From positions 80,402 to 144,401 of the forward strand of contig JAUIER010000003.1 in NCBI GenBank assembly GCA_030429765.1: a stretch of DNA of 64,000 nt. The letters run 5' to 3'. Source of the stretch: a bacterium. Lineage in GTDB: Bacteria; Omnitrophota; Gorgyraeia; Zapsychrales; Zapsychraceae. This document shows positions 51,244 through 57,477 of the stretch, in pieces. Position 1 is the stretch's first letter, and each line of letters starts with the position of its first letter. The notes beneath the pieces are model-generated. The model saw only the letters and a program-made list of their open reading frames with translations. It searched no databases and had not been told where the DNA came from. Made by a program: the position numbers and the translations under genes.

Positions 51244-52506
51244 ATGGAAAAACTCGTTATTGAAGGCGGACTCCCGCTTTCCGGTGAAGTCAAAATCAGT
51301 GGATCAAAGAACGCCGCGCTGCCGATTCTCGCAGCCAGTCTTTTGACCGACGAACCCGTCATCCTCCGTAATGTCCCGATTCTGCGCGATACGACGACGA
51401 TGATCAAGCTGCTCAAGTCATTGGGTAAGATCGTTGAGATCGACGGAGACCGCGTCAAGATCACCAGCAACGGCAAGACACGTCACGTGGCGGAATACAA
51501 ACTGGTTTCGACGATGCGCGGTTCGTTTTGTGTACTCGGACCGTTGTTGGCCAAGCTCGGCAAGGCCAAGGTGTCATTGCCCGGCGGGTGTGTGATTGGA
51601 ATCCGTCCGGTCGATCTTCACCTTAAAGGAATAAAGGCGTTGGGCGCCAAGATTCAGATCGACGGCGGATATGTGATTTCCCGCGCCAAGAAGCTCAAGG
51701 GAACGCATATCTATCTCGGCGGAGTGTTTGGATCGTCCGTACTCGCGACGGCGAATGTGCTGATGGCGGCGGTGCTGGCGGAAGGCGAGACCGTGATCGA
51801 GTCGGCGGCGTGTGAACCCGAGATTGAAGATTTGAGCAATATGCTCAGGGCCATGGGCGCGCGTATTCGCGGCGTGGGCTCGCCGCGCTTGACGATTACC
51901 GGCGTAAAACGTTTACGCGGTGTTTCTTATCGCGTCATTCCTGATCGTATTGAAGCGGGAACTTATATTTTGATTGGAGCCGCAACGCGCAGCGATATCA
52001 AACTGCGCGGCGCAGATATCACCCATTTAATGGCGCTGACGGACAAGCTCAAGGAAGTCGGGGTCAAGGTCACGGCCAAGCGCGATGTCGTGAAGGTCAA
52101 ATGTAAAAAGAATTACAACCCGGTGAGTATCACGACGTATCCGTATCCGGGATTTCCGACGGATCTGCAGGCGCAGTTTATGGCGTTGATGACGATTGTC
52201 GAAGGCGTGAGCGTGATCACGGATAAAGTTTATCCGGACCGCTTTATTCACATCGCGGAATTGAATCGCATGGGCGCTAACATCCGCCGCGAAGGGATCA
52301 ACGCGATTGTGCAGGGAGTCAAAAAACTCAAAGGCGCGCAGGTGATGGCGTCGGATCTGCGGGCCTCGGCGGCGCTGGTAATCGCGGGCTTAGCGGCCAA
52401 AGGCCGGACCGAGATTCATCGGATTTACCATTTGGAACGGGGTTACGAATTATTGGATAAGAAATTGACGGCGTTGGGCGCGAAGGTTTGGCGGGAACGG
52501 GAATAG
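51244..52506 (+). CDS. murA: UDP-N-acetylglucosamine 1-carboxyvinyltransferase.
   Basis: KISGSKNAALPILAA, catalytic-Cys region LPGGCVIG. Confidence 0.95.
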   Translation: MEKLVIEGGLPLSGEVKISGSKNAALPILAASLLTDEPVILRNVPILRDTTTMIKLLKSLGKIVEIDGDRVKITSNGKTRHVAEYKLVSTMRGSFCVLGPLLAKLGKAKVSLPGGCVIGIRPVDLHLKGIKALGAKIQIDGGYVISRAKKLKGTHIYLGGVFGSSVLATANVLMAAVLAEGETVIESAACEPEIEDLSNMLRAMGARIRGVGSPRLTITGVKRLRGVSYRVIPDRIEAGTYILIGAATRSDIKLRGADITHLMALTDKLKEVGVKVTAKRDVVKVKCKKNYNPVSITTYPYPGFPTDLQAQFMALMTIVEGVSVITDKVYPDRFIHIAELNRMGANIRREGINAIVQGVKKLKGAQVMASDLRASAALVIAGLAAKGRTEIHRIYHLERGYELLDKKLTALGAKVWRERE

Positions 52507-52527
52507 CGACGAGATAGTGGAGCGCAT

Positions 52528-53091
52528 ATGATCTTAATGATAGACAACTACGATTCATTCACCTACAACCTGGTGCAGTATTTCGGTGAGCTGGGCGCGA
52601 ATCTCAAGGTGTACCGTAATGATATGATTTCGATTGAGGACATCCGCCGGATGCGGCCCAAAAAGATTGTGGTGTCGCCCGGGCCGAGTAATCCGGACCA
52701 TGCCGGGATTTCATTGGACGTCATCGACACGTTTAAAGGCAAGATTCCGATCCTCGGGGTATGTCTCGGACATCAATGTATGGGGCAGGCCTTCGGCGGC
52801 AAGATCATCCGGGCCAAAAAATTGATGCACGGTAAAACTTCAAAAATTAAACACGACGGCCAAGATTTATTCAAAGGCCTGGACAATCCGTTTGAAGCCA
52901 CGCGGTACCATTCGCTGGTGATCGAGCGCAAAAGCTGTCCCAAGTGTTTTGAGATTACGGCCTCGAGTGAAGACGGTGAGATTATGGGGATCCGTCATAA
53001 AGACTATCCGATGTGGGGCGTACAGTTTCATCCCGAGTCGATTTTGACCAAGGCGGGCAAACCGCTCTTGGGTAATTTTCTCAAACTATAG
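52528..53091 (+). CDS. trpG: Anthranilate/aminodeoxychorismate synthase glutamine amidotransferase component.
   Basis: MILMIDNYDSFTYNL, GVCLGHQ, HPES triad. Confidence 0.9.
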   Translation: MILMIDNYDSFTYNLVQYFGELGANLKVYRNDMISIEDIRRMRPKKIVVSPGPSNPDHAGISLDVIDTFKGKIPILGVCLGHQCMGQAFGGKIIRAKKLMHGKTSKIKHDGQDLFKGLDNPFEATRYHSLVIERKSCPKCFEITASSEDGEIMGIRHKDYPMWGVQFHPESILTKAGKPLLGNFLKL

Positions 53092-53103
53092 GATGGGATC
53101 CAA

Positions 53104-54129
53104 ATGAGCCATACGATTCGTTCATACGTGGACAAGATCCACAATCATGAGAATTTGACGCAGGACGAGATCGAAGTTGTCATGCAGGACATCATGTCCG
53201 GCGAGTCCAACCGCGAAGATATTGCCAGTTTTTTGTTGGCGCTGCGCGAGAAAGGCCCGACGATCGATGAGATTACCGGGGCGGCCCGGATTATGCGCCG
53301 GCATCTGGTCGGCGTGAATACCGTACACAAAGATATTCTTGATACGTGCGGGACCGGCGGTGACAAGACCAATACGTTCAATATCTCGACGGTGACGGCC
53401 CTGGTGGTGGCCGGAGCGGGGGCGGTCGTGGCCAAGCACGGAAATCGGTCGGTGTCGAGTAAGTGCGGTTCGGCCGATATTCTCGAAGCGCTCGATGTCA
53501 ATCTGGATATGGATACCTCCCGTCTGAACGCGTGTCTGGACGAAGTCGGCATCGCTTTTCTGTTTGCGCAAAAACTGCATCCGGCGATGAAGAATGTCGC
53601 GCCTGTGCGTAAGGAATTGGGTGTCGAGACGATCTTTAATCTGCTTGGGCCGTTGACGAATCCGGCCAATGCCACGCATCAGATGATCGGTGTGTACGCG
53701 CGTAAATATGTCAAGCCGATGGTGCAGGTGTTGAAGAACCTGGGATCCAAACGGGCATTGGTTGTGCATGGCGCGGACGGACTGGATGAGATCACAACGA
53801 CCGACAAGACATTTATCTGTGAGTACAACGGCGAGGAGATTTTTTCGTACGATATCGATCCCGACGAATTAGGCATACCGTTCGCCAAGCCTGAAGATCT
53901 CAAAGGCGGTCATCTGGAAGACAATGTCAGAATTGTCCGCGAGATCCTCGACGGAGCGCCCGGACCGAAAAGGGATATCGTTCTGTTGAATTCGGCGTAC
54001 GCGTTGTATATCAGCGAGAAGGCGGCGAATATTGAAGATGGTTTACAGATGGCGCGTGATTCGATCGACAGTGGAAAGGCCAAGGCCAAGCTGGCACAAC
54101 TAAGGGATTTTACCCATGAGCGGACATGA
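53104..54129 (+). CDS. trpD: Anthranilate phosphoribosyltransferase.
   Basis: DTCGTGGDKTNTFNIST, KHGNRSVSSKCGSAD. Confidence 0.93.
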   Translation: MSHTIRSYVDKIHNHENLTQDEIEVVMQDIMSGESNREDIASFLLALREKGPTIDEITGAARIMRRHLVGVNTVHKDILDTCGTGGDKTNTFNISTVTALVVAGAGAVVAKHGNRSVSSKCGSADILEALDVNLDMDTSRLNACLDEVGIAFLFAQKLHPAMKNVAPVRKELGVETIFNLLGPLTNPANATHQMIGVYARKYVKPMVQVLKNLGSKRALVVHGADGLDEITTTDKTFICEYNGEEIFSYDIDPDELGIPFAKPEDLKGGHLEDNVRIVREILDGAPGPKRDIVLLNSAYALYISEKAANIEDGLQMARDSIDSGKAKAKLAQLRDFTHERT

Positions 54130-54907
54130 TTTTCTGCAGGAGATCGTCGAGTACAAAAAAGAATGCAACCGCTTAAAGGCGGAGTACTACACGGCGATTC
54201 GCAACAAGATTGATCTCTCCGAATACTGCCGTTACGGGGTCTTTGCCAAGTCGGTGGGACGCGAAGGGCAGGTTAATCTGATCGCTGAGATCAAGAAGGC
54301 CTCGCCGTCCAAAGGGGTGATCCGTGAGCCGTTTGATGTGCTCGAGATCGCCAAGACATACACCGAACACAAGGCGGCGGCCATCTCTGTTCTCACCGAA
54401 GACAAATATTTTTTAGGACGACCGGATTACGTCAAGAAGGTCAGCGAACAGTTTACGGTGCCGGTCCTGATGAAGGACTTTTTCATTCATGAAAACCAGA
54501 TCTACGAGGCGCTGGTCAAGGGGGCCAGTGCGATCCTGCTGATTTGCGCGATACTCTCCGATGAGCAGTTAAAGCAATTATTGTCGGTGGCGAACGCTTT
54601 GGACCTGGACTGTCTGGTCGAGACGCATGATGAGACCGAGGTCAAGCGGGCGATTGACGTCGGCGCCGAGATCATCGGGGTGAACAATCGCGATCTACAT
54701 ACATTTGAGGTGTCGATGCAGACGAGTCTGGATTTGATCCCCAAGATTCCCCGGGATCGAATCGCGGTCGCCGAGAGCGGGATCCGGACCAACGCGGACA
54801 TTCGGCAGCTCAAAGAGGTGGGGGCCAAGGCGGTTTTAATTGGAGAAACATTTATGCGCGCAGAGGACATCGGCGCCAAGGTTGACGAGATTATGTCAGG
54901 CGGCTAA
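54116..54907 (+). CDS. trpC: Indole-3-glycerol-phosphate synthase.
   Basis: IAEIKKASPSKG, NNRDL, GESG-like (AESGI). Confidence 0.92.
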   Translation: MSGHDFLQEIVEYKKECNRLKAEYYTAIRNKIDLSEYCRYGVFAKSVGREGQVNLIAEIKKASPSKGVIREPFDVLEIAKTYTEHKAAAISVLTEDKYFLGRPDYVKKVSEQFTVPVLMKDFFIHENQIYEALVKGASAILLICAILSDEQLKQLLSVANALDLDCLVETHDETEVKRAIDVGAEIIGVNNRDLHTFEVSMQTSLDLIPKIPRDRIAVAESGIRTNADIRQLKEVGAKAVLIGETFMRAEDIGAKVDEIMSGG

Positions 54908-54922
54908 CACGGAGGAAGAGGA

Positions 54923-55537
54923 ATGACGATGAAAGTTAAGATGTGTGGGATTACCAATCATGAAGACGCGCAGAAGGCGGTTTATTACGGGGCCTATGCC
55001 GTCGGATTTATTTTTCATAAAAAAAGTCCGCGCTACGTATCACCGAGTAAAGCGCGAAAATTAATCGAAGGATTGCCGCCGTTTATCGTGCCGGTCGGTG
55101 TCTTCGTTGATCTCAAGGAAAAGGCGGTGCGGGATATCTGCAAGTTCACCCGGATCAAGACGGTCCAGTTTCACGGTGATGAAAAGCCGATCTACTGCAA
55201 GCGCTTTTCCGATTACAAGATCATCAAGGCCTTTCGGGTCAATGACATGTTTGATTTTGTCGGCGTCAAGAAGTACAAGGTCGACGCCTATCTGTTTGAT
55301 ACCTACCAGGAAAATGTCCTTGGGGGGACGGGAAAGACGTTCAACTGGGACCTGCTCAAAGGGCATAAGTTTGATAAACCCGTCATTCTCTCCGGCGGAT
55401 TGACCTCATCCAATGTGGCCGAAGGGATCGCCGCGGTGGATCCGTACGCCGTGGATGTCTCCAGCGGCATCGAGAAGTCGCCGGGGATCAAGGATCCCCG
55501 CAAAATCCGGGCGTTCATGAAGGCCCTGGACGTCTAA
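54923..55537 (+). CDS. trpF: Phosphoribosylanthranilate isomerase.
   Basis: VKMCGITNHEDA...LSGGL. Confidence 0.9.
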   Translation: MTMKVKMCGITNHEDAQKAVYYGAYAVGFIFHKKSPRYVSPSKARKLIEGLPPFIVPVGVFVDLKEKAVRDICKFTRIKTVQFHGDEKPIYCKRFSDYKIIKAFRVNDMFDFVGVKKYKVDAYLFDTYQENVLGGTGKTFNWDLLKGHKFDKPVILSGGLTSSNVAEGIAAVDPYAVDVSSGIEKSPGIKDPRKIRAFMKALDV

Positions 55538-55659
55538 ATCCCCGCACACTATCTGTTTTGTATTGATCCGATGGATCGGTCCGTCGAGGTATCCCGGACT
55601 GTCCCGGACACATTTTTGAAGCATAGTTGAAAGCTACTCATTTGTAATGACTTACAGGC

Positions 55660-55689
55660 TTGTCCCCTGTGGATAACTATGTTATATTT
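55660..55689 (+). promoter_or_regulatory. Promoter candidate for the downstream structured RNA: -35 TTGTCC (55660-55665), 18-nt spacer, -10 TATATT (55684-55689).
   Basis: The predicted TSS (~55695) coincides with the first nucleotide of the 12-bp closing stem. Confidence 0.35.
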
Positions 55690-55694
55690 GAATT

Positions 55695-55978
55695 AAGCCG
55701 ATAAAGGTAAACCCGGGGAAACCCGGGGACTTTCGAGTCTTACCGACTTGGAACTGCGCGGTTATGAGGCGCGCGGACAAAACCAACAGACCTAAATTGT
55801 TAACGACTACGAGGCCCGTTCGGGCGTTCAGCGCCGGGGCACACAATCCAAGCAGAAGAGTCTAGGACAAGATGGTGGCTGGGTTGCCGAAGTGCGGTGA
55901 GGGAGACATCCTCATCTTTATCGGCTTATTTTTCTCTCTTACCCATACCGTAAAAACACCCGTTTTTGCGGTTTTTTT
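55695..55978 (+). ncRNA. Candidate structured small RNA of unknown class (~285 nt).
   Basis: A 12-nt 5' segment AAGCCGATAAAG (55695-55706) is perfectly complementary to CTTTATCGGCTT (55916-55927), enclosing 233 nt. Inside are the tandem repeat AAACCCGGGG x2 and several GC hairpins (GCCCG-TT-CGGGC, GGCG-TTCAG-CGCC). It ends in an intrinsic terminator (55948-55978). No ORF longer than 60 aa lies in it. It sits in a 570-bp non-coding gap at the boundary of a low-GC islet. Confidence 0.4.
55948..55978 (+). terminator. Rho-independent terminator: CCGTAAAAAC-ACCC-GTTTTTGCGG (one G.U pair) followed by TTTTTTT.
   Basis: 10-bp stem, 4-nt loop, 7-U tract, read directly from the sequence. Confidence 0.65.
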
Positions 55979-56105
55979 GTGTCTACGGTGTTGGTTCTGG
56001 TAGAATAGTAGGAATTAACTGCGCGGGGCTTCACGAACTTCCAATCCTGCAGCAGTTTTTCCAGTGTGATTAAGCAAGCAAAATTAAGAAATATTTCGAT
56101 TGTAA

Positions 56106-56492
56106 ATGACTAACAATTCAATATTTTCATTTCCTCCTGATTTTGAAGTGGAGTATAAATTTTTGACAGTGGACGAGGCCGGTAGAAAAACTGGAACTCC
56201 CTTTCAGGGTTACCGGAGCAATTGGCTATATGAAGGGGATGACCCAATTGCCGACGGCATTTATATGATTCATCCTGAATTTCTGGATGAAGACGGAAAA
56301 AGTTTTCAAAAGAATAGGAAGGTTCCTGCAAAAGGCCTGGCCAGAATGGTAGTAGTCAATCCAGCTAAGAGACCTTATCATCAAAAGAAAATAAAAGTTG
56401 GAACAAGAGGTTTTTTTGTCGAGGGAAATCGGAAAGTGGCAATGGCAACCGTAACGAAGGTGCTTGGTTTGCATACCAATAAAACAACTTAG
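56106..56492 (+). CDS. Hypothetical protein (128 aa), encoded in a low-GC islet.
   Basis: Clean ORF with no recognisable motif. AT-rich codon usage unlike the neighbouring genes. Confidence 0.5.
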   Translation: MTNNSIFSFPPDFEVEYKFLTVDEAGRKTGTPFQGYRSNWLYEGDDPIADGIYMIHPEFLDEDGKSFQKNRKVPAKGLARMVVVNPAKRPYHQKKIKVGTRGFFVEGNRKVAMATVTKVLGLHTNKTT

Positions 56493-56542
56493 TAGAAAAT
56501 TCTCATTCCATAACAGGGATAGGATTTTTCAAAGATAATTGA

Positions 56543-57247
56543 ATGACGTATATTAGAATTTTTGCCTTGGTGCTTAGCGTTATTTTAACGGCCGGGTGTG
56601 CTACCGTTGTTCGGGATCAATTACCGGCAGTCCAAAAATTTTCGACATCTGAGGAAGCTTTCAGCGTATACGTGCTGAATCATGGATGGCATACAGGACT
56701 GGTGATCAGGCGTTCTGATATCCCTGACCATCTTTGTCCCGAAAGTGAAGATTTTGCTAAGTATGAGTATCTCGAAATTGGATGGGGCGATCAAGGTTTT
56801 TACCAGGCTCAGAAAATCACTTTGGGTATTACTATCCGGGCGATCTTTTGGCCGTCCAAAAGCGTACTACATGTGGTGGGATTTAATGGGTCAGTTGAGG
56901 CATATTTTGAAACCAGTGATATTGTACGAGTTGATCTTTCGGAACAGGGATTTAACAAAATATGCATGTTTATTCATGAAACGTTCAAGAGGGAGCAGGT
57001 TGATCTACGAGCTTCGTCTATCGGACCGGGTTTGTACGGGGATAGTAAATTCTACAGAGCTCGCGGGAGATACTACTTTCCTAAAACGTGTAATGTTTGG
57101 ACCGCAAGGGCCCTACGTAAAGGTGGTTGTCCGATAACACCTATTTACGCTGTGACATCCGGCAATACGCTGAATCAGACCAAGAAGTTTGGAGTAATTG
57201 TTAGGGAGTTCCTAGAGTCGTATAAAGCTTCAGGTAGAAAAAAATAA
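56543..57247 (+). CDS. Lipoprotein of the DUF2459/TIGR02117-like family (tentative).
   Basis: Lipobox LTAGC. Conserved-looking core YVLNHGWHTGLVI...EIGWGD. Low-GC like the preceding gene. Confidence 0.5.
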   Translation: MTYIRIFALVLSVILTAGCATVVRDQLPAVQKFSTSEEAFSVYVLNHGWHTGLVIRRSDIPDHLCPESEDFAKYEYLEIGWGDQGFYQAQKITLGITIRAIFWPSKSVLHVVGFNGSVEAYFETSDIVRVDLSEQGFNKICMFIHETFKREQVDLRASSIGPGLYGDSKFYRARGRYYFPKTCNVWTARALRKGGCPITPIYAVTSGNTLNQTKKFGVIVREFLESYKASGRKK

Positions 57248-57477
57248 GTGGATGGTCGAAGTCTCTCCAATCTTGAAAGAATTGGTATCAGAAATCCCTA
57301 AAGTAAAGCAGGGCATAAGTTTAGGTCGTAATTCATTATATTAGCGAAGAGGCCTGTCCCTTTTCGGGGACTGTCCCCTTTGGGGGAGCCGTTCGGGCTT
57401 GCCTATAATACTAATATATCGTATAATTAGTGTATTACTGGTTCCCCACCGTAAGCTTTAGTTTCCACCCATAGTCT

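Follow-up and report, generated by a model that had tools for sequence, protein, structure and literature searches.

A divergent c-di-GMP-I (GEMM-I) riboswitch RNA downstream of trpF in an Omnitrophota genome, with a putative long-range switch helix and two predicted terminators

Results

A structured RNA unit with its own promoter lies downstream of trpF

We analyzed a stretch of 64,000 nucleotides (nt) of DNA from a bacterium of the phylum Omnitrophota (contig JAUIER010000003.1, positions 80,402 to 144,401), hereafter the window, whose coordinates are used throughout. The subject of this study is the gap of ~570 nt located 3' of trpF, which appears to encode an RNA carrying an aptamer of the cyclic di-GMP class I (c-di-GMP-I, also GEMM-I) type; all features of this gap described below are on the + strand. 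The trpF open reading frame (ORF; 54923-55537, Pfam PRAI) is followed by a promoter (55660-55688) that consists of a -35 element TTGTCC (55660-55665) and an extended -10 element TG-T-TATATT (55680-55688), with an inferred +1 at about 55695. This TTGTCC-17-TATATT arrangement with its TG extension is the sole promoter-like (sigma-70-like) site in 55300-56300. Among family members, by which we mean the at least 78 distinct sequences that share the leader and anti-leader layout described below, an extended -10 (TGnTAnnnT) ends 5-7 nt 5' of the first paired base in 49 of 78, and since the element is kept at that spacing in relatives, it supports a +1 at ~55695. The initial annotation, made by a model from the sequence alone, had placed a promoter here with +1 at the first base of a 12-mer, and we find this promoter present with its extended -10 conserved in relatives.

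Downstream of the promoter, the unit comprises a leader AAGCCGAUAAAGGU (55695-55708), recognized by alignment to the Rfam consensus and by a covariance model, an aptamer interrupted by two insertions (55697-55892), a linker hairpin (55896-55916), an anti-leader AUCUUUAUCGGCUU (55914-55927), a U-rich tract (55928-55939) and an intrinsic terminator (55947-55978). The + strand folded more stably than shuffled sequences (z = -3.3), and folding of the - strand gave z = -2.1. The RNA is 69-76% identical in Candidatus Omnitrophota relatives whose TrpF is 81-87% identical, the match beginning exactly at AAGCCG/AGCCG; on alignment, the 5' and 3' blocks are invariant, an insert is variable, and the conserved extended -10 lies just upstream. 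The earlier proposal of a non-coding, structured RNA that has a conserved promoter of its own and ends in a terminator is supported, and a discrete transcript of ~245-285 nt is likely.

The RNA is a divergent member of the c-di-GMP-I class

The initial annotation had recognized no known family by eye. Scoring of orthologues, designated here by locus numbers (L001 and so forth), against Rfam showed that L009 reaches 72.3 bits on RF01051 (gathering threshold 35) and L050 35.9 bits (threshold 35), that L001, in which both insertions of the window are present, reaches 34.3 bits (threshold 35), and that L007, L110 and L122 reach 61-63 bits on the clan-mate RF03167 (threshold 59); RF01051 belongs to clan CL00126, and an Rfam gathering threshold is an operational cut-off and no biological feature. 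We further built a covariance model, R1, from a MAFFT alignment of 31 relatives with the window left out. R1 matched 55696-55892 of the window along all of its 142 positions with 74.7 bits (E 1.8e-20), and the RNA after trpF was its only match in the 64 kb. The window is collinear with the Rfam-passing orthologues. On the strength of the orthologue Rfam scores and the full-length R1 match we assign the RNA to GEMM-I, and the view that it belongs to no recognizable family has to be given up.

Base pairing in the relatives agrees with this assignment. When the GEMM-I structure was imposed on the 31-sequence alignment, 97.3% of cells were paired and 13 of 26 pairs carried compensatory changes, as against 28-43% paired in slid controls; for 79 distinct sequences, in an alignment that was fitted to the model, 97.9% of cells were paired and 15 pairs were compensatory. 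The covariation in related genomes by which the earlier note proposed to judge the structure is thus strong for the aptamer pairs in both alignments. Both the tetraloop hairpin and the receptor helix were also predicted independently by RNAalifold, and each pair of the GEMM-I structure, checked by hand in the window, is a standard pair. A pattern composed of the leader and the first hairpin, CGATAAAGGNAAACCNNNNGNRANNNNGGG, gave more than 120 matches in many phyla, which by eye are ordinary GEMM-I riboswitches and share their 5' and 3' cores with the window RNA. Taken together, the RNA is, as judged from sequence comparison, a divergent, insertion-bearing member of the known c-di-GMP-I class and not a new RNA family, and its ligand is presumably c-di-GMP.

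Other weak Rfam matches were considered and rejected. The trpB ncRNA motif RF04312 scored 28.5 bits (E 0.097 in an 801-nt search) against a threshold of 59, the match being terminator-driven and its region unconserved in relatives; U4, SNORD73 and mir-14 were far below threshold in unconserved regions, and are chance or terminator-driven matches.

Two insertions expand an otherwise canonical aptamer

The extent of the aptamer (55697-55892) is given by R1, the orthologue Rfam matches and the pair counts. By alignment, P1 is formed by C55698-G55892, C55699-G55889 and G55700-C55888, and is followed by J1/2 (55701-55706), whose last base, G55706, is the equivalent of G20 of the Vc2 aptamer; the base of P2 is formed by G55707-C55778 and U55708-A55777. 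In the aptamer fold, the leader therefore provides the 5' strand of P1 (C55698-G55700), J1/2 and the first two pairs of the P2 base. The tetraloop helix (55712-55727) reads CCCGGG-GAAA-CCCGGG, with a GNRA tetraloop at 55718-55721, and all four variable pairs of its stem covary across the family. A tandem AAACCCGGGG repeat had been pointed out in this region; the repeated letters are real, but they form no separate repeat and are just the two arms of this hairpin.

Insertion 1 (55731-55776, 46 nt) consists of two hairpins (55731-55753 and 55754-55776) and lies 3' of GGGGAC and 5' of the AC by which the P2 base is closed (A55777-U55708, C55778-G55707). It is missing from L005, L007 and L009, and is replaced by other sequence in L001 and L004. 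Two-hairpin inserts at this site occur also in the unrelated GEMM-I copies L046, L107 and L050, which suggests that the GEMM-I aptamer tolerates, or makes use of, an expansion between GGGAC and the (G/A)C closing the tetraloop helix. A 10-nt direct repeat, AACTGCGCGG, is found once inside insertion 1 (55752-55761) and once just past the terminator (56017-56026), probably by chance.

The segment 55779-55800 contains J2/3 and the 5' strand of the receptor helix (AACC..CAGACC, CCUAAA at 55791-55796, then UUGU), and alignment to the RF01051 consensus through orthologues makes A55779 the equivalent of A47, a residue that takes part in ligand contact. The receptor helix pairs 55781-55800 with 55867-55885; the corresponding pairs of alignment A3 (82-93/194-205 and 98-102/186-190) are 90-98% paired, with compensatory changes. 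Insertion 2 (55801-55866, ~66 nt) is a distal extension of this helix with several local hairpins; it occurs in most family members and is missing from the minimal ones of ~95 nt, such as L169:2349-2443, the aptamers of the family falling into length classes of 95-98, 136-157 and 181-211 nt. The 3' strands of the receptor helix and of P1 occupy 55867-55892 (ACAA GAU GGU GG CUGGGUU, then C55887, and C55888, G55889 and G55892), C55887 being the C92 equivalent. The receptor partner is GAUGG at 55871-55875, and L009 has the canonical CCUAAG...UAUGG.

As in Vc2 and RF01051, the window RNA has a three-helix aptamer with a GNRA tetraloop and a CCUAA(A/G)...(U/G)AUGG receptor, and it shares with RF01051 the junctions AAAGG-AAACC, GGGAC-CAAA-CC and GGGUUGCCGAA; it differs by the addition of the 46-nt two-hairpin insertion and the ~66-nt receptor-helix extension. 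By sequence, the equivalents of G20, A47 and C92 are all in the canonical state, and the GAAA-capped hairpin is predicted to dock on the CCUAAA receptor. In Vc2, G20 and C92 contact the ligand and the corresponding tetraloop-receptor contact is made (PMC11705072). Downstream of the aptamer, the linker hairpin GGUGAGG-GAGACAU-CCUCAUC (55896-55916) abuts the anti-leader and is kept in L001, L004 and L005; a small hairpin fills the 20-35 nt that separate the aptamer from the anti-leader in most family members.

The leader can pair with a distal anti-leader in a helix incompatible with the ligand-bound fold

The 12-mer AAGCCGATAAAG (55695-55706) is perfectly complementary to CTTTATCGGCTT (55916-55927), as had been noted before. 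With a G-U pair and one more pair, the minimum-free-energy fold extends this stem to a helix of 14 base pairs (bp), in which the leader (55695-55708) pairs with the anti-leader (55914-55927). We estimate the chance expectation of a 12-bp perfect inverted repeat in the 570-nt gap at ~0.01. Scanning metagenomes with AGCCGATAAAGGTAAACC yielded at least 120 loci; among the matches listed, 78 of 123 distinct leader-bearing sequences have the exact 9-mer UUUAUCGGC 110-250 nt 3' of the leader, for which our own estimate of the chance expectation is ~0.002 per sequence. The leader:anti-leader helices of the family are 10-16 bp long and have T-rich tails. When 108 GEMM-I copies from other genomes were examined, 7 had an anti-leader of at least 9 nt, 3 of which were family members, so that outside the family only 4 of ~105 sampled copies have one. 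The expression platform is uncommon and appears to be lineage-centred. In L085, which represents an independent lineage, the anti-leader changes together with the flank of the leader (UUCGAUAAAGGC paired with GCCUUUAUCGAA), and this co-change supports pairing rather than a fixed sequence motif.

The initial annotation viewed the 12-bp stem as an architectural stem closing the RNA end to end. Its 5' arm, however, is at the same time the 5' strand of P1 and the ligand-contacting junction, and the G20 equivalent G55706 is paired inside the 14-bp helix; the stem and the ligand-bound fold are therefore mutually exclusive. It follows from this exclusivity that the stem belongs to the expression platform as its switching helix and is no architectural feature, and a switch helix that competes with ligand binding is the most likely interpretation.

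The proposed switch helix is followed by a U-rich tract and by a second predicted terminator

The U-rich tract AUUUUUCUCUCU (55928-55939) lies directly 3' of the 14-bp helix, and helix and tract together form the proposed terminator T1. Counting of T residues in the 10 nt 3' of the helix gave a mode of 7 across the family, the background T fraction being 0.26. The terminator further downstream, T2 (55947-55978), has the structure ACCGUAAAAAC-ACCC-GUUUUUGCGGU with an 11-bp stem (55947-55972) followed by U7, confirming the strong terminator described in the initial annotation. The sequence of T2 varies in relatives and its structure is kept; it follows T1 in 59 of 75 loci at a median distance of 12-16 nt. 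At 12 of the 16 loci without T2, at least 6 T are found in the 9 nt after the helix, and the U-tract is strongest at loci without a second terminator. Loci located in front of a gene for an RsmE-like methyltransferase (RsmE-type loci) have T1 with no second terminator detected, inspection of L122 by eye revealed no TATAAT-like promoter before the gene, and these loci look like ordinary leader riboswitches. At L122 (860-905), and also at L146, L163, L176 and L194, the U-tract pairs with an A-rich segment located 3' of it, giving a hairpin with up to 18 bp and no mismatch; the pairing is kept among these loci although their sequences differ, and this hairpin would partly sequester the anti-leader in read-through transcripts.

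We also considered pairing of the anti-leader with the 5' arm of T2 as an antiterminator and rejected it, the resemblance between ACCGUAAAAAC and GCCGAUAAAGG being partial and unconserved in L001, L004 and L050, with T2 favoured everywhere.

The place after trpF is kept while the downstream gene varies

Homologues of TrpF place the source, a metagenome-assembled genome, in Candidatus Omnitrophota. The operon aroA-trpG-trpD-trpC-trpF is common to contigs encoding TrpF at 71-87% identity. In the window this operon (51244-55537) comes after prfA-prmC and ends with trpF, and no trpE, trpB or trpA is adjacent, here or in relatives. The RNA keeps its place 3' of trpF and the next gene changes among relatives: a giant gene follows in L001, L004 and L005, DAHP synthase follows in L009, and L007 has a 99-amino-acid (aa) ORF together with an M20 peptidase. 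A TPR gene on the minus strand separates trpF from the RNA in L001, and in L010 no copy of the RNA was found within 4 kb of trpF.

Family-wide, the next ORF is co-oriented with the RNA in 58 of 65 loci. Grouping of the downstream genes by eye according to their N-terminal sequences, with Pfam run on one representative of each group, revealed GH1 glycosidases (~22 loci; Glyco_hydro_1), a Cys-rich protein of ~100 aa (~13 loci; no Pfam match), RsmE-like RNA methyltransferases (7 loci; Methyltrans_RNA), CorA (5 loci; CorA) and, at a few loci, giant proteins (no Pfam match on the N-terminal 786 aa tested). The Cys-rich proteins, encoded directly 3' of the riboswitch at no fewer than 13 loci (L007:5102-5401, L153, L171, L182, L193, L206, L215, L220, L227, L229 and others), share the pattern M..FIRVY...HLLIYGDLSG.CA.C...D.K and several Cys residues. 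The GH1 genes at L136, L144, L147, L164, L169, L178, L201, L205, L213, L231, L234 and L050 start 8-14 nt past a perfect extended -10 (TGnTATAAT), most of them without a Shine-Dalgarno sequence, suggesting that their mRNAs are leaderless or near-leaderless. The -35 element of these loci (TTGGGA) is part of the conserved T2 hairpin ATCCCAAC...GTTGGGATTTTTT, in which it lies in the 3' arm.

Beyond T2, the window has a low-GC islet (56000-57470; GC 39-45% vs ~52-57% around), which lies between T2 and a giant ORF and holds two + strand ORFs, one of 128 aa (56106-56492; no Pfam match) and one for a DUF2459 protein (56543-57247; Pfam). The islet is missing from L004 and L005. In the initial annotation it was taken to fit the use of the RNA gene as an integration site; the islet is situated 3' of T2, and we found neither flanking direct repeats nor an integrase, which leaves that idea unsupported. 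The giant ORF extends from 57475 past the window end (64000), encoding more than 2175 aa with His_Phos_1 near the visible end, whereas the first 1000 aa match nothing in Pfam, and is homologous to the genes of 1900-2100 aa that directly follow the RNA in L001, L004 and L005. The N-terminal region of the giant homologue of L005 (LWVNLSPYE...) is, as judged by eye, also found in a 661-aa protein encoded 3' of the family member L149.

Discussion

The mechanism that we favour as best supported is an ON switch operating by strand exchange, which has a promoter to itself and combines a ligand-gated terminator T1 with a constitutive terminator T2, a reading to which we assign a probability of roughly 0.6. 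In the absence of c-di-GMP, the leader would remain free and zip with the newly made anti-leader into the 14-bp helix, which, standing before the U-rich tract, would act as an intrinsic terminator whose 'loop' is the whole aptamer. When c-di-GMP is bound, the leader would be locked in P1 and in the ligand pocket, T1 would be blocked and the polymerase would continue; both termination at T1 and this ON polarity are inferred from the layout of the RNA. The ligand-independent T2, 20 nt further on, would end most read-through, giving an RNA of ~245 nt (T1) or ~285 nt (T2), and since the constitutive T2 lies so close behind, most transcripts would end as one of these two discrete RNAs, roughly matching the discrete transcript that the initial annotation had expected to see in RNA-seq. 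Control of the co-oriented genes downstream, i.e. the islet ORFs and then the giant gene, would have to operate by leakage through T2 or by some other effect.

Several observations weigh against this reading. At gathering thresholds the window itself matches no Rfam family anywhere, and at the Rfam E-value threshold it gives a local match of 25.2 bits to RF03167 (55697-55748); we ascribe the low score to the two insertions, because L001, which has both, stays at 34.3 bits and orthologues without insertion 1 reach up to 72.3. The leader is invariant in the family, partly by design of the search, so that covariation of the switch helix is uninformative there. About one fifth of the members have no U-rich tail after the helix, and a terminator stem enclosing ~200 nt is unusual, its role in T1 being a prediction. 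Folding revealed no antiterminator for T2 in the window or in the family, and losing T2 with the leader excluded from the fold costs 13.1 kcal/mol in the window (family median 11.5), so read-through of T1 may leave downstream genes unaffected, T2 being dominant. An extended -10 (TGnTATAAT-like) is present within 60 nt past T2 in 27 of 51 loci, which suggests that the next gene is transcribed independently.

The last two points bear on what the switch would control. We regard it as possible, if unlikely, that the RNA is a stand-alone c-di-GMP-sensing small RNA, in which the ligand decides whether a short, closed isoform (T1) or a long, open one (T2) is made, the latter exposing the anti-leader and the U-rich segment for pairing in trans, protein binding or ligand buffering. 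Such an RNA would explain the conserved promoter of its own with +1 flush with the helix, the constitutive T2, the promoters past T2 together with the GH1-type start codons (ATG, 8-14 nt past the -10 by eye), and a downstream gene that varies in close relatives while the place after trpF is kept; a precedent is the Vc2 GEMM-I aptamer, reported to act on a small RNA (bioRxiv 10.1101/617340). Yet co-orientation of 58 of 65 downstream ORFs is unexpected for an independent gene, RsmE-type members without a detected T2, with no promoter seen in L122, resemble ordinary leader riboswitches, and a segment that must complement the leader has little freedom for targets. Somewhat less probable still is that there is no gating of an mRNA leader at all, and that c-di-GMP picks between termination points ~40 nt apart, the signal passing through promoter occlusion, polymerase hand-over or a trans-acting long isoform. 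At GH1-type loci, the 3' arm of T2 and its U-tract overlap, by eye, the -35 and the spacer of the extended -10 promoter of the next gene, and if promoter occlusion or isoform choice were true, a riboswitch could in this manner come to control leaderless genes.

Whether the RNA senses c-di-GMP at all is a separate matter, and we hold another ligand, e.g. 3'3'-cGAMP or another nucleotide signal as in rare GEMM-I variants, to be improbable. GEMM-I variants with altered specificity exist (PMC7266159). GH1, RsmE and CorA are not classic c-di-GMP targets, and several orthologues score higher on RF03167 (c-di-GMP-I-GGC) than on RF01051, with L007, L110 and L122 exceeding its gathering score and the best local Rfam match of the window falling to the same family. 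The consensus of the RF03167 model, by which we judged the GGC variant, has G at the A47-equivalent position (GACGCGAA), whereas the window (ACAAAACC) has A there, as does RF01051 (GACGCAAA), and L122, L110 and L007 likewise align A; because of this A at the position separating the two, we file the RNA under canonical c-di-GMP-I. Furthermore, G and C are present at the positions equivalent to G20 and C92, while cGAMP-selective GEMM-Ib aptamers carry A at position 20, and a C-to-U change beside G20 is offset by G-to-A in its partner (pair 13-78: UG 18, UA 12, CG 1). Least of all do we expect a 6S-like or otherwise unclassified regulatory RNA with paired termini as an architectural closing stem, as first proposed, and we give this a very small chance. 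The window RNA resembles 6S RNA in that its 5' and 3' ends are paired, that it has a promoter and a terminator of its own and that its discrete transcript would measure ~200-300 nt, and its failure to match Rfam at gathering thresholds would fit; however, it matches the GEMM-I model over its full length with covariation, its interior is a riboswitch aptamer without the central bubble architecture of 6S RNA, and the ligand-contacting junction lies in the 5' arm of a stem that cannot coexist with the aptamer. The Rfam check for 6S, RNase P and SRP matched none of them in the window, 6S being missed at both gathering and E-value thresholds, and ARAGORN found no tRNA or tmRNA there.

A published counterpart to the preferred reading, a ligand-gated T1 followed by a constitutive T2, is the Bc1 GEMM-I riboswitch of the Bacillus cereus group, in which a ligand-responsive T1 and a constitutive T2 lie 28 bp apart, T1 unfolding with c-di-GMP and T2 staying folded and masking the response (PMC11218506). 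In both RNAs a GEMM-I aptamer is followed by a pair of intrinsic terminators spaced a few tens of nt from each other, and T2 of the window likewise has no competing structure. They differ in that, as we read that paper, T1 of Bc1 is a local hairpin whereas T1 of the window is a long-range helix enclosing the aptamer, that Bc1 belongs to another phylum, and that many loci of the present family have the promoter of the next gene directly past T2. In Brocadia-type copies the terminator overlaps the 3' side of the aptamer, unlike the window RNA, where the 5' strand of the aptamer would be the switching strand, by long-range pairing with the anti-leader. With the Vc2 small RNA the window RNA shares a GEMM-I aptamer that is part of a discrete small transcript; that aptamer is reported to be at the 3' end of the small RNA and to control its stability (bioRxiv 10.1101/617340), whereas the window aptamer starts at +1. 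Our literature search found neither an account of GEMM-I from Omnitrophota nor one in which a terminator stem encloses a whole aptamer, which is no proof of novelty. Ordinary c-di-GMP riboswitches are present in Omnitrophota too, as shown by another metagenome-assembled genome of the phylum, in which L127 carries on its minus strand (~2590-2735) two tandem canonical GEMM-I aptamers, each with its own terminator; the gene downstream of them encodes a protein whose N terminus is hydrophobic and resembles a signal peptide.

Knowledge of the GEMM-I aptamer class itself is unchanged by these findings. They show that a large, apparently Omnitrophota-centred set of c-di-GMP riboswitches (at least 78 distinct sequences) can escape Rfam gathering thresholds owing to insertions, and standard annotation may accordingly under-count c-di-GMP effectors in Omnitrophota. 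The proposed arrangement, in which a long-range terminator uses the 5' strand of the aptamer as one of its arms and a second, constitutive terminator lies behind it, raises the possibility that the Bc1-like dual-terminator design is recurrent, and the associated genes, encoding GH1, the Cys-rich ~100-aa protein, RsmE, CorA and giant proteins, hint at a c-di-GMP regulon.

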